Assembly: GCA_036555005.1 (NCBI GenBank) | Contig: DATBME010000054.1 | Span: 1-49,408, forward strand | Direction: 5' to 3' | Source: Candidatus Limnocylindria bacterium | GTDB taxonomy: Bacteria > Chloroflexota > Limnocylindria > QHBO01 | DNA length: 49,408 bases | Part shown: positions 6,979 to 42,905 of the stretch, one piece after another | How positions within the stretch are numbered: position 1 is the stretch's first letter | How the letters are laid out: every line of letters starts with the position of its first letter | Made by a program: the position numbers and the translations under genes | The notes under the pieces: model-generated | Databases searched by the model: none | Told to the model about the DNA's origin: nothing | The model's input: only the letters and a program-made list of their open reading frames with translations

Positions 6979-7159
6979 GCGGCAGAGGATAGCCGCTCCG
7001 GATGGGACGGCCGCGCCCGACGAGCGCTCGCCGGCCGAATGACGTAGGCAGAAGCCGGCCCATCGGCCGATGCATCGCCCCCAGTCCGGGGCGGACACTG
7101 CCATCGCTCGGAGAAGGCGCCGACCAGAGGCGCGGCCGAGCGAGAAAGGAGGTCGAAGG

Positions 7160-32631: not shown

Positions 32632-34166
32632 CGGGTGCGGGGGAAGCCCAGGTCGACCTTGGAGGTGGCTGGATCCGGCCAGCGCGCGGTCACCACCTTG
32701 CCGCGCGTGTAGAACTGGATGCCCTCCGGCCCGTACATGTGCAGGTCGCCGAAGAGGGAGGCCTTCCAGCCGCCGAAGCTGTAGTAGGCCACCGGCACCG
32801 GGATCGGCACGTTGACGCCGACCATGCCGACGTTGACGTCGAACTGGAACTGGCGGGCCGCTCCCCCGTCACGCGTGTAGATGGCGGTGCCGTTGGCGTA
32901 CGGGTTGTCCTCGATCACCTGCATCGCATCGGCGTAGGTCGGGACGCGGACGACCTCGAGCACCGGCCCGAAGATCTCGTTGCGATAGCAGTCCATCTCG
33001 GGCGTCACGTTGTCGAGCAGCGAGACGCCCAGGAAGAACCCCGGGCTGTCCTGGCAGATGCCGTGCTCGCGTCCGTCGACCCGCAGCGTGGCCCCCTGCT
33101 GATGACCGCTGTCCAGGTAGCCGGCCACCTTGTCACGGTGCTCGGCCGTGATGAGCGGGCCCATCTCGGACTCCGGATCGGTCCCCGGCCCGACCTTGAT
33201 CTTGGGCAGCCGCTCCTCGATGGCCTCGACCAGGGGATCGGCCGCGTCGCCGACCGCCACCACCACGCTGATCGCCATGCAGCGCTCCCCAGCCGACCCG
33301 TATGCGGCGGACACCGCCGCGTCAGCCGCCATGCCGATGTCCGCATCGGGCAGCACGACCATGTGGTTCTTGGCGCCGCCCAGGGCCTGCACCCGCTTGC
33401 CGTGCTTCGTGCCGGTCTCGTAGATGTAGCGGGCGATCGGCGTGGAGCCCACGAAGCTGATCGCCGCGATGTCCGGATGCTCCAGGATTGCGTCGACTGC
33501 CACCTTGTCGCCGTGGACGACGTTGAAGACGCCGTCCGGCAGCCCGGCCTCCTGCAGCAGCTCGGCGATAAAGATGGAAGCCGATGGATCCTTCTCGGAG
33601 GGCTTGAGGATGAACGTGTTGCCGCAGGCGATGGCGTTGGCGAACATCCACATCGGCACCATGGCCGGGAAGTTGAAGGGCGTGATGCCGGCCACCACGC
33701 CGAGCGGCTGCCGGATCTGGTAGACGTCGATTCCGGTCGAGGCCTGCTCGGAGTAGCTCCCCTTCAGCAGGTGCGGGATGCCGCAGGCGAACTCGAGGTT
33801 CTCCAGCCCGCGGGCCACCTCGCCCAGCGCATCGGTCGGCACCTTGCCGTGCTCCGCGGTGAGCAGCGCGGCAATGTCGCGGCGGTGCTCGTCAACCAGG
33901 TTGCGGATCCGGAACAGGATCTCGGTGCGCTTGCTGAGCGACGACGCGCGCCAGGCCGGGAAGGCCTCCCGGGCGATGCGCACCGCAGCATCCACTTCCT
34001 CGACGGTGGCGAAGTCGACCTCGCGGGCGACCTCGCCGGTCGCCGGGTTATAGACCGATCCGTTACGACCGGACGTGCCCGCCACGCGGCGGCCGCCGAT
34101 CCAGTGGTTCACTCGGTCCAGGCCGCCAGCCGCATCCGCCGGTGGGGATTCCGCTACCTGGGTCAT
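32628..34166 (-). CDS. mmsA: Methylmalonate-semialdehyde dehydrogenase (CoA-acylating)
   Basis: ITPFNFPAMVPMWMFANAIACGNTFILKPSEKDP...GERCMA. ATG at 34166 has AGGAGCGAGG upstream. The track ORF is extended to 34820. Confidence 0.9.
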   Translation of the reverse strand: MTQVAESPPADAAGGLDRVNHWIGGRRVAGTSGRNGSVYNPATGEVAREVDFATVEEVDAAVRIAREAFPAWRASSLSKRTEILFRIRNLVDEHRRDIAALLTAEHGKVPTDALGEVARGLENLEFACGIPHLLKGSYSEQASTGIDVYQIRQPLGVVAGITPFNFPAMVPMWMFANAIACGNTFILKPSEKDPSASIFIAELLQEAGLPDGVFNVVHGDKVAVDAILEHPDIAAISFVGSTPIARYIYETGTKHGKRVQALGGAKNHMVVLPDADIGMAADAAVSAAYGSAGERCMAISVVVAVGDAADPLVEAIEERLPKIKVGPGTDPESEMGPLITAEHRDKVAGYLDSGHQQGATLRVDGREHGICQDSPGFFLGVSLLDNVTPEMDCYRNEIFGPVLEVVRVPTYADAMQVIEDNPYANGTAIYTRDGGAARQFQFDVNVGMVGVNVPIPVPVAYYSFGGWKASLFGDLHMYGPEGIQFYTRGKVVTARWPDPATSKVDLGFPRTR

Positions 34167-34240
34167 GCCGTTGCCTCGCTCCTGGAGCGACAACCTTACC
34201 TCGCGGCGCTGGCGAGCGGCAGTGGGAGCCTCCGGGCGCT

Positions 34241-37150
34241 TCAGCGCGACGCGGCGATGGTGGCGGGTTGCGGTGGTTCGGAAGCACGGATGCCGGCGGC
34301 CCAGGCAGCCACCTCGGTCCGGCGCGCCACACCCAGCTTGGCCAGGATGTGCTCCACGTGGGCGCTGACCGTCTTTGGTGAGACGGACAGCTCGGCCGCG
34401 ATCTCGGCGTTGGTCAGGCCCTCGGCGATCAGCCGCGCCACCTCGAACTCGCGCACGGTCAGGGGCCGCCACGGCTCCTTCTCGTGGCCTCGACCGCGGC
34501 TCAACTTCCCGATCTCGTCGGCGCGGACCACGAGCGGCGGGCTGCCCATCTCCTGGGCTCGGGCAACGGCCTGCTCCAGGACGTCGGCGGCATCCACGTA
34601 CCGATTCATGCGCATCAGGCACTGCGCCAGGTCGAGTCGCGCGCTGACGGCCTCCCAGGCCCGACCGCGATCCTCCCAGCCGCGGATCGCGCGCTCGAAC
34701 GCCTCGCGCGCGGCCGTCAGCGACCCGCCGGCCAGGCGGACCAGCCCCTCGGCGTGGCTCAGCGCGGCTCCCGCGATGGAGTCCCAGCCGGCGAAGAAGT
34801 CCCGCGCCTGGCCCAACCACTTCGCGGCCGCGTCCGGACGTCGCGCGGCGAGGTAGCTCCGGGCGCCAGTCACCACGAACGGGATGAAGAGGGCTCGCTC
34901 GCCGCTCGAGCTTGCGAGGTTCCAGCCTTCCTCGCAGTGTTCAATCGCCGCGTCGGCCTGACCGTCCAGCAGGTTGGTCTCAGCCAGCCCCCACAGCGGT
35001 GTCAGGACGAGATGCACCTCACCGATGCGGCGGCCAACGGCCAGCGACTCGCTCAGCCAGCGCCGTGCCTCGTCCGATCGGCCCCGCCCCATCGCCACCA
35101 GGCCAATGACGTCCTGCCCACCGACCATTCCACGCCGGCAGCCGCGGTCGCTCAGGTCCTGCCGCGCTCGCGTATCGGCGTTGTCCCAGTGACCCGCCGA
35201 CCACTCGAGCAACGCGAGGGTGCCCGCGATCATCTGCCGGCAGTGGCTCTGCTCGATCGCGTCGGCGTACTGCAGGCCCTCGCCAATCGCCACGTTCGCG
35301 GCCTGCGGATCCAGGATTCGAGCGGCGAGCAGCGCCAGGTTGCGGTAGCCGGTGACGCCGACCGATTCGAAGCCCGCATCGCGGGCCTCGCGCGCTGCGT
35401 GCATCCCGTCGCGCATGCCGCTCTCGTAGTTGCCATCGACGATGTCGATGCGGCCGAGCATGATGTCGATGTCCAGGACCGTCTCGCGGTCACCGACCGA
35501 CGTCGCCAGTGCCCGCGCCGCTGTTGCGCGCTCTCGCGCTCCAGCCAGGTCCATCGCCAGGAATCGGCATTCGGCGTCCAGCACCATGAGCCAACCGCTC
35601 AGCATGTCGCGCTCGGTCGACGGTGGTAGGTCGGCGATGTCGGCGAATCCCTGCTCGATTGAGGCCAGCAGGTTCTCGGAGGGCTCACCGCGGCGGAGGG
35701 CAACGGAGAACAAGGTGATCTGCTGGGTGGCCGCCGCGATGGGTCGTCCCGCCTCGAGGTAGAGCTGTCGGGAGCGAAGCGCGGCCATCTCGGCGTCCTC
35801 GTTGTGCTCGATCGCGCCGGCCGCGTTCGAATACTCCTCGAAGAGCTTCGCCTGCTCGAGCACGGGTAGGTCGTCAGGCATGTTCGCGATCGCGCGCTGA
35901 TAGAGCTCGTAGGCCTCCTGCCGAGCCGAGATGCGGCTGGCCTCGTCCGCAGCTGACATCGACGTGCGGAAGGCTTGCGAGCGGAGGCCAGCGCGGTCGT
36001 AGTGACGGGCGGCGTGCACCACACTCGACGCCTCGAGGGCCAGCACGAACTCGGCGGCATGTGCGTGGAATCGCCGCAGCTGGGACGGCGGCAGGGCATC
36101 GTAGATGACGTCCCGCAGGAGCTGGTGGCGGAAGTCGTAGTAGCCGCCATCCACATACTGGAATGGATAGAGGATCGCTGCCTCCTCCAGTTCCTGGATC
36201 GCCGGCTCGAGATCCGCCATCGGCCGATCCATGACCCCGGCCAGGACTTCCGGCCTGAAGCAGCGGCCGATGACGGCTCCGGCCCGTGCGACCTCACGCG
36301 CATCGGGCGACAGCCTCTCCAGGCGGACCAGGACGGCGTCGCCGATGGTATCGGGCACGTGCGCGTCGCGGATCCGTCGCCCATCGGCCCGCGCCTCCGG
36401 GTCAAGGGCGGCGAGGAGCTCTTCGATGTGCAGCGGAATGCCGTTGGTACGTTCGTGCACGGCTTCGACCACGTCATGGGAAGCGGGAAGCTCGCCACCC
36501 AGAATCAGCGTCGTCGCCATGCCGGTCTCGTCAATGGTCAGCGGTCGCAGGCGCACTTCGTCCGCATGCCGCTGGCTGAGGATGCGGGATCGCCACTCCC
36601 GGTGGATGCCGTCAGCAGGGAACTCGTCGGCCCGGTAGTCCGCCACCACCAGGAGCGGCCGATCTGACGTATGGCGAGCCAGCTCGCCGATCACCTCCAG
36701 GCTCATCTCGTCGGTCCAGTGGAGGTCGCTGAAGATCAGCATCGTGGGTCGGTCGATGGCCTCCAAGATTCGGTCGGCGGCAGCGCGGACGATCAGGCGA
36801 CGGGAGCCGAGGGCATCGCCTTCGTGACGCCCGTCGATGGCCAGCAGGTCCTGCGAGAGCGCTCCCCACGCTTCGTTCTCGCGGAGTCCGGCGGCGAAGT
36901 CGCGGATCGAGGCCAGCGGGACCTGGTGGTCCTGCGGCGCAACGGCCCCGCCGTCAACGCGCACGCCCGCGGCCTCCGCCTTCCGAGCTGCTGCGCGGAT
37001 CAGGCGCGTCTTGCCCAGCCCGGCCTGTCCTGAAAGGAAGACGGCATTGCCACGTCCTGCATTCGCCTCTGCGATGAGCTGATCAAAAAGCTCAAGAAGG
37101 TCGTCGCGGCCAACGAGGATGGGGCACTGAACGTGACCGGCGCTGCTCAT
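34241..37150 (-). CDS. Large ATP-binding LuxR-family regulator (LAL/STAND: AAA_16 NTPase, TPR-like region, GerE HTH), copy 1
   Basis: ILVGRDDLLELF..., Walker A GQAGLGKT, Walker B MLIFSDLHWTD, a long helical repeat region, and C-terminal LTVREFEVARLIAEGLTNAEIAAELSVSPKTVSAHVEHILAKLG. TAGACT-N7-ATG at 37150; the track start is 37264. Confidence 0.85.
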   Translation of the reverse strand: MSSAGHVQCPILVGRDDLLELFDQLIAEANAGRGNAVFLSGQAGLGKTRLIRAAARKAEAAGVRVDGGAVAPQDHQVPLASIRDFAAGLRENEAWGALSQDLLAIDGRHEGDALGSRRLIVRAAADRILEAIDRPTMLIFSDLHWTDEMSLEVIGELARHTSDRPLLVVADYRADEFPADGIHREWRSRILSQRHADEVRLRPLTIDETGMATTLILGGELPASHDVVEAVHERTNGIPLHIEELLAALDPEARADGRRIRDAHVPDTIGDAVLVRLERLSPDAREVARAGAVIGRCFRPEVLAGVMDRPMADLEPAIQELEEAAILYPFQYVDGGYYDFRHQLLRDVIYDALPPSQLRRFHAHAAEFVLALEASSVVHAARHYDRAGLRSQAFRTSMSAADEASRISARQEAYELYQRAIANMPDDLPVLEQAKLFEEYSNAAGAIEHNEDAEMAALRSRQLYLEAGRPIAAATQQITLFSVALRRGEPSENLLASIEQGFADIADLPPSTERDMLSGWLMVLDAECRFLAMDLAGARERATAARALATSVGDRETVLDIDIMLGRIDIVDGNYESGMRDGMHAAREARDAGFESVGVTGYRNLALLAARILDPQAANVAIGEGLQYADAIEQSHCRQMIAGTLALLEWSAGHWDNADTRARQDLSDRGCRRGMVGGQDVIGLVAMGRGRSDEARRWLSESLAVGRRIGEVHLVLTPLWGLAETNLLDGQADAAIEHCEEGWNLASSSGERALFIPFVVTGARSYLAARRPDAAAKWLGQARDFFAGWDSIAGAALSHAEGLVRLAGGSLTAAREAFERAIRGWEDRGRAWEAVSARLDLAQCLMRMNRYVDAADVLEQAVARAQEMGSPPLVVRADEIGKLSRGRGHEKEPWRPLTVREFEVARLIAEGLTNAEIAAELSVSPKTVSAHVEHILAKLGVARRTEVAAWAAGIRASEPPQPATIAASR

Positions 37151-37157
37151 CGCGCGC

Positions 37158-37163
37158 AGTCTA
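37158..37163 (-). promoter_or_regulatory. Candidate -10 hexamer TAGACT (leaderless LAL copy 1)
   Basis: The minus strand reads TAGACTgcgcgcgATG. LAL copy 2 has the identical hexamer and spacing. Confidence 0.4.
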
Positions 37164-37185
37164 CGACGCCGCCGCCAGTGCCTCG

Positions 37186-37205
37186 CATCGGTCGAATGAC
37201 CGATG
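37186..37205. promoter_or_regulatory. Perfect 8-4-8 palindrome CATCGGTC-gaat-GACCGATG, a candidate operator in the LAL1 / DUF4242 divergent promoter region
   Basis: Two further direct copies of CATCGGTCA lie at 37240 and 37262, 22 bp apart. Confidence 0.4.
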
Positions 37206-37339
37206 AGTTCCCGGTGGGCTGACCGCCATCGCGCCCAAACATCGGTCAATCGTATTGGGGTCATCGGTCATGCACACGATGACGCCCTGACGTCCTGACC
37301 CGAACCTCGAGTGGCAACAGCCCGCCGCTGAGGTACTGC

Positions 37340-37588
37340 ATGGCCAAGTTCATGGACGTCCACTCTGGCTTCATCGGCGTGACCGCCCAGCAGCTGAAGG
37401 AAGCGCACGAGCGAGACCTCGCCATCGAGGCTGAGGAGGGCGTCCACTTCGAGCGTGCCTGGCTCGACCCCGAGCGCGGCAAGGTCTTCTGCCTGGCCAC
37501 CGGCCCGACGCTTGAGGCCGTGATGCGCGTCCATCAGCGCGCGGGCCACCCCACCCGCGAGATCTACGAGCTCGCGGTCGAAGTCTGA
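37340..37588 (+). CDS. DUF4242 (SCO4226-like ferredoxin-fold) small protein, copy a
   Basis: 82 aa: MAKFMDVHSGFIGVTAQQLKEAHERDLAIEAEEGVHFERAWLDPERGKVFCLATGP...VHQRAGHPT. GAGG lies 6 nt upstream. Confidence 0.8.
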   Translation: MAKFMDVHSGFIGVTAQQLKEAHERDLAIEAEEGVHFERAWLDPERGKVFCLATGPTLEAVMRVHQRAGHPTREIYELAVEV

Positions 37589-37611
37589 TCGACTTCCAAG
37601 GAGCAAGAACG

Positions 37612-37815
37612 ATGCACGACTACACGGCGTCGCACATCCACGAAGGCCGCATGCGGGAGTTGACGCGAGAGGCGGATGCGGTTCGGCTCGCGGCAGTTGC
37701 CAGAGCGGGGCGCACGCCGCGCGATACCCGTCGAGGTCCTCGTCGCTTGTTGTCCGTCGGCGTGTTTCGCCTTTGGTTCGAAGCCTGGCGATCGCCCCGA
37801 GCCGCGAGGCCGTGA
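37612..37815 (+). CDS. SD-led 67-aa basic ORF of unknown function, possibly the frameshifted front of a decayed DUF4242 gene
   Basis: AAGGAG lies 8 nt upstream of the ATG. MHDYTASHIHEGRMRELTREADAVRLAAVARAG... The stop lies inside the relic segment at 37806..37880. Confidence 0.4.
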   Translation: MHDYTASHIHEGRMRELTREADAVRLAAVARAGRTPRDTRRGPRRLLSVGVFRLWFEAWRSPRAARP

Positions 37816-37880
37816 TGCGCGCTCACGAGCGCGCCAGCCATGCAACCCGAGAGACCGACCAGCGCACCGAGGAGGTCTGA
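37806..37880 (+). pseudogene. Relic 3-prime end of a DUF4242 gene, out of frame with the 67-aa ORF
   Basis: Encodes EAVMRAHERASHATRETDQRTEEV*, versus EAVMRVHQRAGHPTREIYELAVEV* for copy a at 37514..37588. Hand count: 56/75 nt and 14/24 aa identical, with aligned stop codons. Confidence 0.55.
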
Positions 37881-37994
37881 CCACCAACACAGATAGGGAG
37901 CCGGCGGCGACCAATCTGGGGCATTTCCCCGATGCCGCGGCGGCGGATCACGGCCGAACGTTCCACTGAGGATTAGCCAGAGGAGACAACACCC

Positions 37995-38246
37995 ATGCCA
38001 CTGTTCATGGACGTCCACGACATCGATGGGGGCGTCGCCGTGGGCGACGTGTCGAAGGCCCACCAGGCGGACCTCAAGACCCAGGGGCAATACGGCGTCA
38101 ACTACCTGCAGTACTGGGTTGACGAGAAGAACGGCAAGGTCTTCTGCCTGGTCGACTCGCCGGATGCCGATGTCGCGGCGCATGTCCACCGCGAGGCCCA
38201 CGGCCTCGTCGCCGATGCGATCTATCCCGTCGTCGAAGGCCAGTAG
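37995..38246 (+). CDS. DUF4242 (SCO4226-like) small protein, copy b
   Basis: 83 aa: MPLFMDVHDIDGGVAVGDVSKAHQADLKTQGQYGVNYLQYWVDEKNGKVFCLVDSP...VHREAHG. AGAGGAGA lies 8 nt upstream. Confidence 0.8.
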   Translation: MPLFMDVHDIDGGVAVGDVSKAHQADLKTQGQYGVNYLQYWVDEKNGKVFCLVDSPDADVAAHVHREAHGLVADAIYPVVEGQ

Positions 38247-38267
38247 GCCAGACAGGAGGAACCACCA

Positions 38268-38807
38268 ATGCGTCTGCCATTCGGCCGCCGCCTCTCGCTG
38301 GCAGCCCTCGCCGCGATCATGCTCATCACCTTCTCAGTTGGCGTGACGGCGGCCAGCAGCCGCCACCAGCAGCTGCAGCGTGCCCGCGAAGCGACTGCCA
38401 AGTTCCGCGACATCGATCGCGCCGCCGACAAGGGCTACGGTCTCCCGCCCGCCGGTCCGCTGCACGAGTGCATCTCCTCCCTGGACGGCACGGGGGCCAT
38501 GGGCTTCCACTACATCAACGGCAGCCTCCTGGATGACAAGGTCCAGGTTCGGAAGCCGGAGGCCCTCGTCTACGCCCCCAACCGGAACGGCAAGCTGCGA
38601 CTGGTCGCCCTGGAGTACGTGGTCTTCGCCGATGCCTGGACAAGCGACGAGCCACCGATGATGTTCGGCGAGATGTTCATGTTCACTCCCGCCCCGAACC
38701 GCTATGAGATCCCGGCCTTCTGGTCACTGCATGTGTGGCTCTACAAGCACAATCCGGCAGGCAGGTTCGAGCCGTTCAACCGCAGGGTCAGCTGCCACTG
38801 CACCTGA
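38268..38807 (+). CDS. Secreted protein of unknown family (signal peptide, C-terminal Cys-His-Cys)
   Basis: 179 aa. MRLPFGRRLSLAALAAIMLITFSVGVTAA is signal-like. CAGGAGGA lies 7 nt upstream and 21 nt after copy b. I recognise no domain. Confidence 0.65.
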   Translation: MRLPFGRRLSLAALAAIMLITFSVGVTAASSRHQQLQRAREATAKFRDIDRAADKGYGLPPAGPLHECISSLDGTGAMGFHYINGSLLDDKVQVRKPEALVYAPNRNGKLRLVALEYVVFADAWTSDEPPMMFGEMFMFTPAPNRYEIPAFWSLHVWLYKHNPAGRFEPFNRRVSCHCT

Positions 38808-38829
38808 CACCTGGCTGCGCAAGGATCCA

Positions 38830-38859
38830 CACGGGCCGCCTCTCCGGAGGCGGCCCGTG
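38830..38859 (+). terminator. Perfect 13-bp-stem hairpin after the DUF4242 operon (no U-tract)
   Basis: cacgggccgcctc-tccg-gaggcggcccgtg. Confidence 0.5.
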
Positions 38860-38897
38860 GCCGCATCGGGGCAGCCGGGGTGGCTTCGCGCCGCCGG

Positions 38898-38903
38898 TAG
38901 ACT
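38898..38903 (+). promoter_or_regulatory. Candidate -10 hexamer TAGACT (leaderless LAL copy 2)
   Basis: TAGACTgccggccATG(38911). Confidence 0.4.
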
Positions 38904-38910
38904 GCCGGCC

Positions 38911-41514
38911 ATGGACCTGCTCGAGCGCGACGAGCTGCTCGCGTCGCTGCGCGCCGAGCTGCGCACCGCCGGATCGACCGGCGCGATCGCGTTCCTGGAG
39001 GGCGAGTCGGGCGTCGGCAAGACGTCGGTCGTGCGGGCACTGGCGGCTGATCTCCCCCGCGCGGTGCGCCTGCTGTGGGGGGCCTGCGACGCGCTGTCGA
39101 CCCCCCGTCCGCTGGGTCCGCTGCTGGACATGGCGTCCGGTGGGGCCCGGCGGGTGGCGCAGGCGCTGGACGCGGGGTCGGCCAGCCATGCCCTGTACGC
39201 CGCGCTGCTGGCCGACCTGCAGACGCCCAGCCTGGCCGTCATCGAGGATGCGCACTGGGCCGATGAGGCGACGCTCGACCTGCTGCGCTTCGTCGGCCGT
39301 CGCGCGAGCCAGACCAGGTCGCTCCTGCTGGTCACGATGCGCGACGACGAGGTCGGCCCGGACCATCCGCTGCGCAGTGTCCTCGGCGACCTGGCGACGG
39401 CATCCGCCAGGCGCCTCCGGGTCAGCCCGCTGTCGCTCGAGGGCGTTCGTCGACTTGCCGCGAGCCAGCCCATCGACGCTGAGCGGCTGCACGCCGCCAG
39501 CGGCGGCAACCCGTTCTATGTGACCGAAGTGCTGGCGGCTCCCGGCTGGACCGTTCCGCCCAGCGTGCGGGACGCCGTGCACGCCCGGGTAGCGCGGCTG
39601 CCGGAGGCGACGCGGACGCCGCTCGAGGCGGTGTCGATCGACCCCGGCGCGGTGCAGCGCACCGTGCTGCGCGCGCTGGACATCGCTGACGACGCCGTCG
39701 CGTCGGCCACGGAGGCCGCGGTCCTGGTCGACGATGGTGACCGGCTCAGCTTCCGCCACGAGCTGGCGCGCCTGGCGATCGCCGACGCACTGCCGGCCGG
39801 CCGCCGCATGGATCTCCATCGGCGCATGCTCGACGCCCTGGTCGACCTGGGCGTGACCGACGTCGCCCGGCTGGCTCACCACGCCGCCGGGAGCGGCCAG
39901 CCGGCGGCCGAGCTGGAGTGGAGCATGGCCGCGGCACGCGAGGCCGCACTGGCTGGAGCTCATCGCGAGGCGGCGGCGCAGTACGCCAGGGCGGTGCGCC
40001 ACGCGGACCTCCTGCCGCGAAGCGAGGCGATCGACCTGTTCGAACGCTACGGGGAGCTGCTGATCATCATCGATCAGCCGGCGCGCGCCGTTGACATCTG
40101 GGAGCGAGTGGTCGGCATGCGGCGCGCGACGGACGACCGCATCGGCGTGGCCGTCGCCGAGGCGATGTACGCCCGCGCGCTCTGGACAGCCGGCCGCGGC
40201 GAGGAGGCATACCCGCTCATCTCCAGAACCACGGAGGCCCTGGAAGGCGAGCCCGATCCGCGGGTGTGCCTCGCCTTCGGGACGCGCGCCTACCTGGCGA
40301 TGCTCGCCCGTCGTTCGGAGGAGGCGGTCCTGTGGGCGCGACGCGCCATCGACCTGGAGCCGAGCGGCGAGTACGACTGGGTGCTGCCGATGGCCCTCAA
40401 CGCCCTGGGCTCGGCCCGCATCTGCGGCTTCCAGGACATCGGCGGCATCGACGACCTGCTGCTCTCCCAGCGGCGGGCCGCCGAGATCGGATCGCGACGC
40501 TACGTGGCGGCTGCCTACACCAACCTCGGCTCTGGCCTGGGCGAGATCCGCCGCTACGCGGAAGCGGAGCGCTACCTCCAGGAGGGCATCGACTACGCGA
40601 CCGCCGAGGATCTCGACTTCACGAAGAACTACTGCATCGCCTGGCTGGGCCGCGTGCGCTTCGAGCAGGGCCGCTGGCCGGAAGCCCTGGAGCTGGCGGA
40701 GCGCGCCCTGGCGGACGAGGAGATCTCGCCCATCTCGCCGATGGTGGCCCTCACCGTCCAGGCCCGGGTCGCAACCCGGAGGGGCAGTCCCGATGCCGCG
40801 CGGCCGCTGAAGCTCGCGTGGCGGCTGGCCGAGCAGAGCGGCGACCTGCAGCGCCTCTGGCCGGCGGTGGCGGCCCGCGCCGAGCTGGCCTGGCTGACCG
40901 GGTCGCCAGCCGATGCGATTGGCGACGACCTGCACCGGGTCCTCCAGCTGGCCCGTGAGAAGCGGCTGGCCTGGGCAATCGGCGAGCTCGCCTGCTGGCA
41001 GCAGCGGCTCGCACTCGACAACGCCACGGACGTCGCGGACGCCGCCGAGCCCTTCGCCGCGCAGCTCAAGGGCGATCACGTCGCGGCGGCGGCTGCCTGG
41101 CGCCGGCTCGGCTGCCCGTACGAGGAGGCATGGGCACTGGCCGACAGCGGCACCGAGGCGGCCATGCGCGACGGACTGGCGATCCTCATCCGGCTCGGGG
41201 CCGAGCCGCTGGCCGACCGCGTGCGCCGCTCGTTGCGCGCCCTGGGCGCGACCGGGGTTCCGAGGGCCCGCCGCCGGTCCACCGCGGCGGCACCGTCCGG
41301 CCTCACCGTCCGCGAGCAGGAGGTGCTGGCCTTGGTGGCCAGGGGGCTGACCGATCGCCAGATCGCCGAGCGCCTGTTCGTGTCGCCGAAGACCGCCGGC
41401 CACCACGTCTCGGCCATCCTGGCCAAGCTGGGCGTCAGCCGCCGAACGGAGGCGGCCGCCACCGCGCTCAGCATGGGGTGGATCCAGCCTGAAAATGGGG
41501 AGCCCTCCCGATGA
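38911..41514 (+). CDS. Large ATP-binding LuxR-family regulator (LAL/STAND), copy 2
   Basis: MDLLERDELLASL..., Walker A GESGVGKT, Walker B LAVIEDAHWAD, a helical/TPR-like middle, and C-terminal LTVREQEVLALVARGLTDRQIAERLFVSPKTAGHHVSAILAKLG. The track ORF is extended to 38704. Confidence 0.85.
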   Translation: MDLLERDELLASLRAELRTAGSTGAIAFLEGESGVGKTSVVRALAADLPRAVRLLWGACDALSTPRPLGPLLDMASGGARRVAQALDAGSASHALYAALLADLQTPSLAVIEDAHWADEATLDLLRFVGRRASQTRSLLLVTMRDDEVGPDHPLRSVLGDLATASARRLRVSPLSLEGVRRLAASQPIDAERLHAASGGNPFYVTEVLAAPGWTVPPSVRDAVHARVARLPEATRTPLEAVSIDPGAVQRTVLRALDIADDAVASATEAAVLVDDGDRLSFRHELARLAIADALPAGRRMDLHRRMLDALVDLGVTDVARLAHHAAGSGQPAAELEWSMAAAREAALAGAHREAAAQYARAVRHADLLPRSEAIDLFERYGELLIIIDQPARAVDIWERVVGMRRATDDRIGVAVAEAMYARALWTAGRGEEAYPLISRTTEALEGEPDPRVCLAFGTRAYLAMLARRSEEAVLWARRAIDLEPSGEYDWVLPMALNALGSARICGFQDIGGIDDLLLSQRRAAEIGSRRYVAAAYTNLGSGLGEIRRYAEAERYLQEGIDYATAEDLDFTKNYCIAWLGRVRFEQGRWPEALELAERALADEEISPISPMVALTVQARVATRRGSPDAARPLKLAWRLAEQSGDLQRLWPAVAARAELAWLTGSPADAIGDDLHRVLQLAREKRLAWAIGELACWQQRLALDNATDVADAAEPFAAQLKGDHVAAAAAWRRLGCPYEEAWALADSGTEAAMRDGLAILIRLGAEPLADRVRRSLRALGATGVPRARRRSTAAAPSGLTVREQEVLALVARGLTDRQIAERLFVSPKTAGHHVSAILAKLGVSRRTEAAATALSMGWIQPENGEPSR

Positions 41515-41569
41515 GGCCGGAGCCCGCCGGACCCTAGCCTCGTCCGACACCGCAGCCAACGAGGACGCG

Positions 41570-41842
41570 ATGCCGCGCTACGTGGTCGAACGCACCTTTC
41601 CCGGCGGGCTGGCGGTCCCCGCCGACGAACGCAGCAAGGAAGTCTGGCGCGGGGTGGTCGCTCGGAACGCAGACGAGGCGGTGACCTGGATCCACTCGTA
41701 CGTGAGCGATGACCACAGCCGCCTGCTGTGCATCTATGAGGCCGACGACCCGGACGCCATCCGCCGCGCGGCCGAGCGCAACCAGCTGCCGGTCGATCGC
41801 ATCACGTTGGTGACCGTGCTGGACCCGCACGCCTACCGCTGA
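41570..41842 (+). CDS. DUF4242 small protein, copy c (divergent subtype)
   Basis: 90 aa: MPRYVVERTFPGGLAVPADE...VTWIHSYVSDDHSRLLCIYEADDPDAIRRAAERNQLPVDRITLVTVLDP. GAGGA lies 5 nt upstream and 55 nt after the LAL2 stop. Confidence 0.8.
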   Translation: MPRYVVERTFPGGLAVPADERSKEVWRGVVARNADEAVTWIHSYVSDDHSRLLCIYEADDPDAIRRAAERNQLPVDRITLVTVLDPHAYR

Positions 41843-41863
41843 AGCGAGGGCACGTGGACGACG

Positions 41864-42886
41864 TCAGGCCGGCGGCCGCACCTCGCCGCGCTGGCGGATG
41901 ACGGAGGCCGTGGTCGCGCGCCAGTCGTAGCCGGCGGGCGACTCCTCGGCACCCAGCAGGCCCTGCTCCCGCAGCCAGCCGTCGTTGAACAGCTTCCCGA
42001 CGTAGTTCCGTCCGCCATCGGGCAGGATCACCACGAACAGCGCCTCGGGGTCGGCCAGGTCGCGGGCAACCTGCAGGGCGGCCCACAGCGCGGTGCCGCA
42101 CGACTCGCCCATCAGGATCCCCTCGGCGGCGGTCGCCTGGCGGGCGGTGAGCATCGAATCGCGGTCCGACACGCGCACGACCAGATCGCAGGCATCGGCG
42201 TCGTAGGTGGCCGGCCAGAAGTCTTCGCCGATCCCCTCGGTCAGGTAGGGCTGCGGATCGGCGCCCGAATAGACGCTCCCCGCCGGATCGGCGCCCACCA
42301 CCTGGATGGCGGCGTTCTGCTCGCGCAGGTAGCGGCCCGCCCCGCTGACGGTGCCACCCGTCCCCAGGGCGACCACCAGGTGGGTGATGCGGCCATCCGT
42401 GGTCTCCCAGATCTCGGGGCCGGTGGCCAGGTAGTGCGCTTCCGGGTTGGCCGGGTTGGTGTACTGGTCCGGCTTCCAGGCGCCCGGCGTCTCGCGCGCG
42501 ATCCGATCCGAGACGCGGTAGTAGGAGCGCTCGTCATCGGGGTCGACGTCGGTCGGGCAGATCACGACCTCCGCCCCGTAGGCGCGCAGCAGCGCGCGCT
42601 TCTCCTCCGACTGCTTATCGGCCATGACGAAGATGCAGCGATAGCCCTTGATGGCCGCCGCCATGGCCAGGCCGACGCCGGTGTTGCCGCTGGTCGGCTC
42701 CACGATCACGCCGCCGCGCCGCAGCAGCCCGGCCCGCTCGGCCGCCTCGATCATGGGCAGCGCGATGCGGTCCTTGACCGATCCGCCGGGGTTCATGTGC
42801 TCCAGCTTGCCGACGATGCGCGGCGCCACCCCATCGGCCAGGCGGTCGAGCGCGACCAGCGGGGTGCCCCCCACGGCCGCGGTCAC
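41864..42886 (-). CDS. Cysteine synthase / cystathionine beta-synthase-like PLP enzyme (no CBS pair)
   Basis: GGTPLVAL...LEHMNPGGSVKDRIA...EPTSGNTGVGLA. The GTG start leaves an unusually short N-terminus, and the frame stays open upstream without a canonical start. Confidence 0.85.
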   Translation of the reverse strand: MTAAVGGTPLVALDRLADGVAPRIVGKLEHMNPGGSVKDRIALPMIEAAERAGLLRRGGVIVEPTSGNTGVGLAMAAAIKGYRCIFVMADKQSEEKRALLRAYGAEVVICPTDVDPDDERSYYRVSDRIARETPGAWKPDQYTNPANPEAHYLATGPEIWETTDGRITHLVVALGTGGTVSGAGRYLREQNAAIQVVGADPAGSVYSGADPQPYLTEGIGEDFWPATYDADACDLVVRVSDRDSMLTARQATAAEGILMGESCGTALWAALQVARDLADPEALFVVILPDGGRNYVGKLFNDGWLREQGLLGAEESPAGYDWRATTASVIRQRGEVRPPA

Positions 42887-42905
42887 ATCGGGCAGGATGC
42901 CGCGC

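Follow-up and report, generated by a model that had tools for sequence, protein, structure and literature searches.

Gene content of the locus

We analysed a 49,408-nt contig from Candidatus Limnocylindria (Chloroflexota), referred to as a whole as the window, by open reading frame (ORF) listing, translation and Pfam and NCBIfam scans, and describe here a region in which two large AAA_16+TPR+GerE regulators, LAL1 and LAL2, lie among small genes of the DUF4242 family. Alongside the regulators the region encodes three intact DUF4242 genes (DUF4242a, DUF4242b and DUF4242c), a 32-codon DUF4242 remnant, an ORF of 67 amino acids (aa) termed ORF67, and SP179, a 179-aa protein with a signal-like N-terminal segment. 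The gene inventory and coordinates of an initial annotation were borne out by these scans, with the amendment that of the four DUF4242 copies it had counted three are intact and the fourth persists only as the 32-codon fragment.

LAL1 (34241-37150, minus strand; 969 aa) and LAL2 (38911-41514, plus strand; 867 aa) each carry Walker A and Walker B strings and a GerE helix-turn-helix (HTH), and the translations and Pfam confirm the earlier assignment of these elements in both proteins. The Walker A motif reads GQAGLGKT in LAL1 and GESGVGKT in LAL2, and the corresponding Walker B regions read LIFSDLHWTDE and VIEDAHWADE. Matches to AAA_16 (1.2e-19 in LAL1, 4.2e-16 in LAL2) both exceed the Pfam cut-off and are joined by matches to GerE (3.6e-18 and 2.7e-14), while TPR_12 scores 35.7 in LAL1, above its cut-off of 30.1, and 27.8 in LAL2, just below it; the TPR_MalT model reaches only 26.9 bits against a cut-off of 45. 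By the sequence-level definition both proteins are LAL/MalT-like STAND factors, sharing with MalT and LAL regulators such as PikD, SCO0877/SCO7173 and IniR-type proteins an N-terminal P-loop STAND NTPase, a putative long helical/TPR-like region, a C-terminal GerE HTH, a size of 870-970 aa and predicted control of neighbouring genes. They differ from MalT and IniR themselves in that the curated models match only the HTH and score far under their cut-offs (MalT model NF003420, 46.2 bits for LAL1 and 38 bits for LAL2 against 537; IniR model NF038181, 30 bits for LAL2 against 750); they are not orthologues of either. LAL1 and LAL2 are 29% identical over the NTPase region and 59% identical over the HTH, and are distant paralogues. 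The closest solved structures to the LAL HTH are DevR/DosR (2.5e-11), NarL, VraR and GerE. The LAL1 start at 37150 is backed by orthologue alignment and a conserved -10 box, and the recognition helix [AS]PKT[VA]xxHVEHIL is near-invariant among LAL1 orthologues, with KT.(G/D)HHV at this helix in the LAL2 clade.

Defence systems often contain STAND NTPases with TPR-like sensors, and the same architecture could in principle mark an anti-phage STAND defence of the Avs or bNACHT type with DUF4242 as an accessory. We regard this as extremely improbable at this locus: PADLOC matches only the HTH segment, through the HTH-bearing CARF3 model (E ~1e-7) on the GerE region, and no small protein; the C-terminal effector is a DNA-binding GerE domain; and the flanking genes are housekeeping genes (Aldedh, PALP, LGT, valS and clpX). 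With the CARF3 segment as the sole PADLOC match, we rejected the defence reading.

Among the small genes, DUF4242a (37340-37588, plus strand; 82 aa; PF14026, 9.6e-22) is an orthologue of SCO4226, scoring 139.7 bits against the NCBIfam SCO4226 equivalog NF033706 (cut-off 125) and showing 57% identity to PDB 4oi3 (E 6.6e-29). DUF4242b (37995-38246, plus strand; 83 aa; PF14026, 1.1e-21) has 2750 homologues at identities of up to 90%. DUF4242c (41570-41842, plus strand; 90 aa; PF14026, 1.1e-20) belongs to a divergent subfamily and is 18% identical to DUF4242a. The b- and c-types (69 and 21 bits) fall below the NF033706 cut-off and stand above that of PF14026 (77.2 and 74 against 28.5), and are thus members of the same Pfam family. 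The remnant (37785-37880, plus strand) corresponds to the last 32 codons of a DUF4242a-like gene (tblastn, 56% aa identity to DUF4242a, E=1e-9), and its DNA aligns to nt 151-249 of DUF4242a. A Shine-Dalgarno sequence precedes all four operon ORFs, which agrees with the Shine-Dalgarno-linked operon first described here, and the gap from LAL2 to DUF4242c is 55 nt, as claimed.

Conservation of the LAL-DUF4242 pairing

Comparative genomics establishes that LAL regulators and DUF4242 genes are adjacent far more often than chance allows, in 51 of 80 species across two phyla for the a-type and in eight of nine contexts for the c-type, extending the pairing that the initial annotation had noticed at this one locus. 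For the a-type, an alignment of a- and b-type DUF4242 proteins, scanned against a single representative genome for each GTDB species, yielded 80 loci (fetched loci carry L numbers) whose DUF4242a orthologues are 72-91% identical to that of the window, and the window proteins were searched against all ORFs of these loci. A LAL1 orthologue (E 1e-110 to 0) lies beside DUF4242a, within ~1.5 kb, in 31 of the 47 species representatives labelled Chloroflexota, 17 of the 30 labelled Actinomycetota (Actinoplanes, Paractinoplanes, Dactylosporangium, Leifsonia, Protaetiibacter and one Nonomuraea) and all three with unclear labels. Across 773 kb of outer flanks LAL-like matches occur in only seven loci, giving a binomial P of ~1e-43 that is not corrected for phylogeny. 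The two genes are mostly divergent, and because LAL1 instead lies downstream and convergent in ~7 loci, the pairing is independent of a shared promoter. One locus, L010, reproduces the full architecture of the window.

The c-type genes show the same association in unrelated surroundings. Nine homologues (60-86% identity) on long contigs were inspected, and eight have an adjacent 830-970-aa AAA_16+GerE gene, four of them co-directional upstream and four divergent, with all other neighbours wholly different among the nine contexts; the remaining context, from a Myxococcaceae, has no adjacent AAA_16+GerE gene. Where the DNA of the c-type LAL was retrieved, five of six fall in the LAL2 clade, scoring 404-1379 bits with LAL2 and 129-145 with LAL1, and the sixth (L085) is equidistant between LAL1 and LAL2.

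DUF4242a orthologues 72-79% identical to that of the window occur without an adjacent LAL in 29 of the 80 loci, including most Nonomuraea, and at least 16 loci have a highly similar DUF4242a with neither LAL nor operator. LAL-less Chloroflexia loci lie between valS and clpX/clpP/tig, and the Nonomuraea loci lie beside an ABC-F gene. Ten Chloroflexota loci labelled Chloroflexia, Chloroflexota or Limnocylindrales form such a LAL-less set (L007, L013, L016, L033, L038, L050, L060, L061, L064 and L078): all except L007 stand beside valS and/or clpX-clpP-trigger factor genes, all except L050 keep the palindrome described below (<=2 mismatches) upstream of DUF4242a, and SP179 follows DUF4242a in L007, L013, L016, L033, L038 and L050. 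Within Limnocylindria the window segment at ~34150-42900, from the Aldedh gene to the PALP/Lgt genes, is a variable island, seen also in L081 and L093-L095, in which the number and fragments of LAL/DUF4242/SP179 modules differ and LAL genes are fragmented in several long-read assemblies.

Beyond these relatives, DUF4242 genes on Arthrobacter, Ensifer and Haloferax plasmids have no LAL neighbour, and because these distant plasmid genes lack one, the pairing is specific to subfamilies rather than a property of PF14026 overall. Several plasmid contexts have features of their own. On Nocardioides sp. JS614 pNOCA01 (L223, 2157-5287) a DUF4242 gene is divergent from a BTAD-domain (SARP/AfsR-like) regulator, another pairing with a large regulator, and has sulfur-relay genes of the TusA and DsrE families after it. 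On the Arthrobacter sp. U41 conjugative plasmid (L220, 5001-6276) a gene of the SCO4226 family converges on that of an ArsR/SmtB metalloregulator, the sole metal-related neighbour seen anywhere. Ensifer canadensis pT173d (L221, 4001-4816) encodes a 271-aa 'nickel-binding protein' with a DUF4242-like N-terminal segment between two flanking LysR-type regulators, a longer architecture of the family in Proteobacteria. Our search of the accessible literature found no paper linking DUF4242/SCO4226 to LAL regulators.

Predicted operators and promoter geometry

The intergenic region between LAL1 and DUF4242a contains a perfect 7-4-7 palindrome, ATCGGTC-GAAT-GACCGAT, that we designate predicted operator O1 (37187-37204, unstranded); its centre lies 45.5 bp upstream of the LAL1 ATG and it is the sole perfect copy in the window. 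A degenerate copy with three mismatches, O2 (ATCGGTCATGCACACGAT; 37263-37280, plus strand), lies proximal to the DUF4242a promoter, and an extra half-site CATCGGTC (37240-37247, plus strand) sits between the two. The closest relatives (L001-L004, L010, L023 and L028) also have a distal and a proximal operator. The palindrome precedes DUF4242a in most of the loci. Across 1.38 Mb, ATCGGTC-N4-GACCGAT with <=1 mismatch occurs 54 times: 47 copies fall in the 260 bp preceding DUF4242a, the other seven mark the LAL1 5' end, each in a locus that lacks the divergent LAL1-DUF4242a arrangement, and no copy is found at any other site. From this exclusive location the palindrome is therefore read as the cis element of a two-promoter regulon consisting of LAL1 and the DUF4242a operon. 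A motif-first metagenome scan for CATCGGTC-N4-GACCGATG placed 25 of 120 stretches at LAL1 or DUF4242 starts, and stand-alone LAL1 genes on metagenome contigs L105, L164 and L199 carry the palindrome. The other 95 stretches lie mostly within long ORFs, with no recurring gene family beside them except a repeated HNH-type element. By itself the 8-mer CATCGGTC is no guide, being common in the coding sequence of this genome (27 observed versus 3.8 expected), and the signal is carried only by the full palindrome and its location.

Promoter elements stand at fixed distances from these operators. As had been pointed out, TAGACT-N7-ATG precedes both LAL genes, with the hexamer at 37158-37163 (minus strand) for LAL1 and at 38898-38903 (plus strand) for LAL2, where it is identical in L081. 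Among LAL1 5' ends, 44 of 65 have TANNNT-N6-8-ATG/GTG, with TAGACT and TACACT the commonest hexamers and no Shine-Dalgarno sequence; the start shared by the two regulators is explained if the hexamer is, as is probable from this pattern, the -10 box of a leaderless LAL mRNA. Of these 44, 41 have an upstream palindrome whose centre is separated from the LAL1 start codon by 39.5-45.5 bp (median 42.5). On the opposite side, a -10-like nANNNT box of the putative DUF4242a promoter, GAACCT (37302-37307, plus strand), lies 21 nt after O2. When 41 loci are anchored on the palindrome, an A at +23 and a T at +27 are each present in 90% on the DUF4242a side within an unconserved GC-rich background, which corresponds to a nANNNT -10 core 21 nt after the operator and an operator centre ~42 bp from the expected start. 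A consensus scan of the region for a sigma-70 -35/-10 promoter returned none. LuxR at the lux box is a class-II activator whose operator is centred at -42.5, and the ~42.5-bp spacing here, measured from predicted starts, and the missing -35 element would fit the same class.

A second operator type accompanies the b- and c-type genes. O3 (CTGGGGC-ATTT-CCCCGAT; 37916-37933, plus strand) is a predicted operator upstream of DUF4242b that is conserved in L081, L010 and L095 and is followed after 22 nt by the -10-like box GAACGT (37956-37961, plus strand). O4 (ATGGGGA-GCCC-TCCCGAT; 41495-41512, plus strand) overlies the last codons and stop of LAL2 and is followed after 22 nt by TAGCCT (41535-41540, plus strand), the predicted -10 box of a promoter belonging to DUF4242c itself; similar elements precede the c-type genes of L010, L081, L084, L218, L090, L091 and L056. 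The common form is yT(A/G)GGnn-N4-nnCCGAT(G) followed after 21-22 nt by (T/G)ANNNT, a distance kept in eight c-type lineages with no conservation of the spacer sequence. L010, L081, L095, L084, L218, L090, L091 and L056 share this arrangement despite unrelated spacers.

Searching for the composite GG-N8-CCGAT-N21-24-ANNNT gave 164 sites in 1.55 Mb, 70 of which end 0-120 nt upstream of a DUF4242 start, a target space that makes up ~0.4% of positions (110 genes x 121 nt versus ~3.1 Mb strand positions). The composite is present at 54 of 86 a-type, five of eight b-type and 11 of 16 c-type genes, and the window has four matches, including those at O3 (37919) and O4 (41498), against 0.6 expected. 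A relaxed operator and -10 match at 7057-7099 (plus strand; GGCCCATCGGCCGATG...ACACT), in or next to long ORFs with no DUF4242 gene nearby, is probably due to chance. Operator type tracks LAL clade, with the ATCGGTC type accompanying LAL1 and the TGGG..CCGAT type accompanying the LAL2 clade; because of this match O1 and O2 are assigned to LAL1, and more tentatively O3 (DUF4242b-SP179) and O4 (DUF4242c) may be assigned to LAL2.

Other DUF4242a promoters have different elements. The Nonomuraea loci L008, L020, L046, L062, L066, L067 and L071 have neither LAL nor palindrome and instead have two to three tandem 10-nt repeats (GGGATGGAAC) ~40-70 nt upstream of DUF4242a, a pattern that implies a different regulator for these genes. 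In L037, L044 and L075 a variant 7-4-7 palindrome, ATnGGGC-N4-GCCCnAT, lies upstream of DUF4242a with no adjacent LAL and may be an operator of altered specificity.

From these comparisons we consider it likely that the LALs are LuxR-like class-II activators, with self-regulation indicated for LAL1 only, and that they have the DUF4242 genes and SP179 as dedicated targets. The locus would then hold two parallel, dedicated transcription circuits. Each LAL would behave as a MalT-like STAND factor charged with ATP and an inducer, both suggested by its family, and the GerE-type HTH of the charged protein would bind a 7-4-7 operator, 18 bp long and with its centre ~42.5 bp before the transcription start, activating in the class-II, LuxR-like manner promoters that have a -10 box and no recognisable -35. 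LAL1 would act on ATCGGTC-N4-GACCGAT, through O1 at its own, probably leaderless promoter in positive autoregulation and through O2 at the divergent DUF4242a operon, and the LAL2 clade would act on TGGGnn-N4-nnCCGAT, through O3 at DUF4242b-SP179 and through O4 at DUF4242c, with small cytoplasmic DUF4242 proteins and exported SP179 as the regulated cargo. Such a design resembles LuxR at the lux box and DosR/DevR at its 20-bp palindrome, where an inverted repeat of ~18-20 bp near -42.5 (predicted starts, in our case) takes the place of the -35, and DosR/DevR is also the closest PDB relative of the LAL HTH; it differs from both in that the DNA-binding module is driven by a STAND NTPase rather than by an acyl-homoserine-lactone-binding or receiver domain. 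It differs from MalT in having an 18-bp palindrome in place of MalT boxes, and from MalT and LAL regulators generally in being directed at one tiny DUF4242 gene, sometimes joined by one for a secreted protein, rather than at a catabolic or biosynthetic cluster.

Several points weigh against this scheme. The whole case is built on sequence comparison; the 80 loci are the closest relatives of DUF4242a, so that the sample is biased to close a-type genes and the counts carry no phylogenetic correction; and an operator over the -35 position could equally mediate repression. For LAL2, no correctly spaced operator is present at its own promoter, which has only a CATCGGGG half-site 26 nt from the -10 box that is not conserved in L081; O4 overlaps conserved C-terminal codons of LAL2, and coding constraint may cause part of its conservation; and the assignment of O3 and O4 to LAL2 comes from few independent lineages. 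In ten loci DUF4242a retains the upstream palindrome but has no LAL1 beside it; there the binding protein is either encoded elsewhere or a different one.

Two alternatives follow from these points. The LALs could bind their operators as repressors that occlude the -35 region until a signal releases them: the operator spans about -51 to -34, where RNA polymerase would be blocked. We consider this doubtful, as MalT and most characterised LALs are activators, the absence of a recognisable -35 and the weak nANNNT -10 boxes are both typical of activator-dependent promoters, and the strict 21-22 nt phasing from operator to -10 fits class-II activators, whereas simple occlusion needs no such precision. 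Negative action does have precedents among LAL/LuxR-type proteins, SCO6993 being a reported example (PMC9628970). Alternatively, the palindrome could be bound by a different, unlinked factor, with the LALs neighbours for another reason. The ten loci with a palindrome and no adjacent LAL1 would suit this reading, as would the fact that sequence comparison rather than biochemistry connects LAL and palindrome, yet it is hard to reconcile with the other observations and we judge it very unlikely. In all seven cases in which LAL1 is separated from the DUF4242a promoter, the LAL1 promoter has a second palindrome of its own, the signature of an autoregulated factor; the stand-alone metagenome LAL1 genes likewise carry it, operator type changes with LAL clade, and an inverted repeat of this size suits GerE/NarL/DosR-type dimers, which bind inverted repeats of 18-20 bp.

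DUF4242 and SP179 as predicted outputs

Activation by the LALs, the reading we prefer, would make the DUF4242 proteins products of the circuit. The initial annotation had instead suggested that they may serve the STAND regulators as partners or co-factors that sense metal or redox state, with SP179 as the output; on this model they would gate the regulators in the way that MalK, MalY and Aes gate MalT. This idea draws on real regularities: adjacency is kept for two DUF4242 subfamilies and in divergent as well as convergent or co-directional orientations; the LAL and DUF4242 genes are the only constant members of the c-type neighbourhoods; LAL clade and DUF4242 subfamily co-diversify; and the a- and b-types retain invariant H8, H23, H65, C51, D26 and D43. 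MalK, a member of the MalT regulon, feeds back on MalT, a precedent for a target acting back on its regulator, although the likeness is conceptual only, as MalK, MalY and Aes have no sequence or structural relation to DUF4242. A partner role of this kind could coexist with activation as a feedback loop. Against it, the operator, elsewhere confined to the LAL1 promoter, precedes the DUF4242 genes themselves and marks them as regulated targets, similar DUF4242a proteins persist without an adjacent LAL in the 29 loci noted above, and in at least 16 loci without LAL or operator, and there is no evidence of a LAL-DUF4242 fusion. We find the sensing-partner idea not supported and, as an overall account, unlikely; the DUF4242 proteins are more likely outputs than sensors.

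The nickel chemistry of SCO4226 also bears on a sensing role. The initial annotation's description of SCO4226 from Streptomyces coelicolor (PDB 4oi3/4oi6) as a nickel-binding ferredoxin-like dimer is correct (PMC4186839); its nickel ligands are H3, H12, H20, H23, E38, D43, S46, E74 and H76, with Ni-1 held by H76, D43 and S46, and its affinity for nickel is low (Kd 10 uM), as is its induction by the metal, at 2-3-fold (PMC4186839). In alignment, the same positions of DUF4242a read K3, I12, K20, H23, E38, D43, R46, E74 and Y76, so that five of nine ligands (H3, H12, H20, S46 and H76), among them four of the five histidines, are replaced, and Y76 is general among DUF4242a orthologues; c-type proteins lack the conserved histidines altogether. 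Because these ligand residues are not conserved in DUF4242a, nickel sensing was rejected as a conserved function. DUF4242a thus resembles SCO4226 in overall sequence and differs from it in the metal site, and the genomic settings differ as well: SCO4226 adjoins phoU-phoRP in S. coelicolor and is described as PhoRP-regulated (PMC4991794), whereas the window DUF4242 genes are linked to LALs.

SP179 (38268-38807, plus strand) was proposed earlier as a secreted output, and this part of the earlier proposal is supported, because SP179 is encoded in an operator-controlled operon. The protein matches no Pfam, NCBIfam or PADLOC entry and belongs to a predicted exported family with 545 homologues (~175-225 aa), and the 120 listed of these 545 are all 'hypothetical protein' or unnamed. 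Six residues (H81, E98, E116, H155, C68 and C176) do not vary across the family and two more, H66 and E67, hardly do, a pattern suggestive of a metal site and a disulfide; an AlphaFold model (pLDDT 73) has no PDB neighbour with E < 1. Wherever seen in the fetched loci SP179 lies directly 3' of an a- or b-type DUF4242 gene, including many Chloroflexota a-type loci; homology is directly shown in L010 and L098, and in L093-L096 the gene after the b-type has no Pfam match and is SP179-sized (170-182 aa) or fragmented. A PF03640 (Lipoprotein_15) gene lies 3' of c-type DUF4242 in three otherwise unrelated contexts (L082-L084, ~3.7-5.6 kb; L091-L092, 5368-6333; L218, 4283-5311), paralleling exported SP179 after the a- and b-types.

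Two smaller features complete the locus. ORF67 (37612-37815, plus strand) is preceded by a Shine-Dalgarno sequence, overlaps the DUF4242 remnant and has no match in Pfam or NCBIfam; its homologues (E 2e-6 to 7e-18) lie right after DUF4242a in L115 (188-424), after SP179 in L002 (10638-11141) and in L113 (125-406), and it may be a real small gene. The hairpin noted before LAL2 is real (38830-38859, plus strand), with a 13-bp stem, a 4-nt loop and no U tract, 3' of SP179. The 73-nt stretch containing it folds at -54.5 kcal/mol (z = -6.2), and it is a probable terminator or attenuator, although a terminator scan requiring a T-run did not list it; an Rfam scan of 33500-42500 matched no family.

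DUF4242/SCO4226 is a widespread orphan family, and its sole functional label, 'nickel-binding', comes from a single Streptomyces protein that binds the metal with low affinity. These findings provide the first conserved genetic context for the family, found in soil Chloroflexota (Limnocylindria) as well as in Actinomycetota, for example Actinoplanes and Microbacteriaceae: a putative dedicated STAND/LAL regulator, a defined 18-bp operator and a precise promoter geometry. They tie a second uncharacterised family, secreted SP179, to the same regulon, and describe what we read as leaderless, positively autoregulated LAL genes in a phylum with almost no studied transcription factors. A further, rather improbable scenario is that DUF4242 is the obligate small-protein arm of a two-protein module, induced by the STAND regulator, binding a ligand or metal and feeding back on the sensor domain; if true, it would constitute an unrecognised 'STAND regulator plus mini-sensor' circuit with matched pairs (LAL1/a-type and LAL2/c-type) in Chloroflexota and Actinomycetota. 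Unless that partner hypothesis is true, the locus represents a LAL regulon that is new, broad in its phylogenetic spread and equipped with a defined operator, rather than a new type of mechanism; it yields testable predictions for LAL-bound DNA, transcription starts and responding genes and would provide a reporter for finding the signal.

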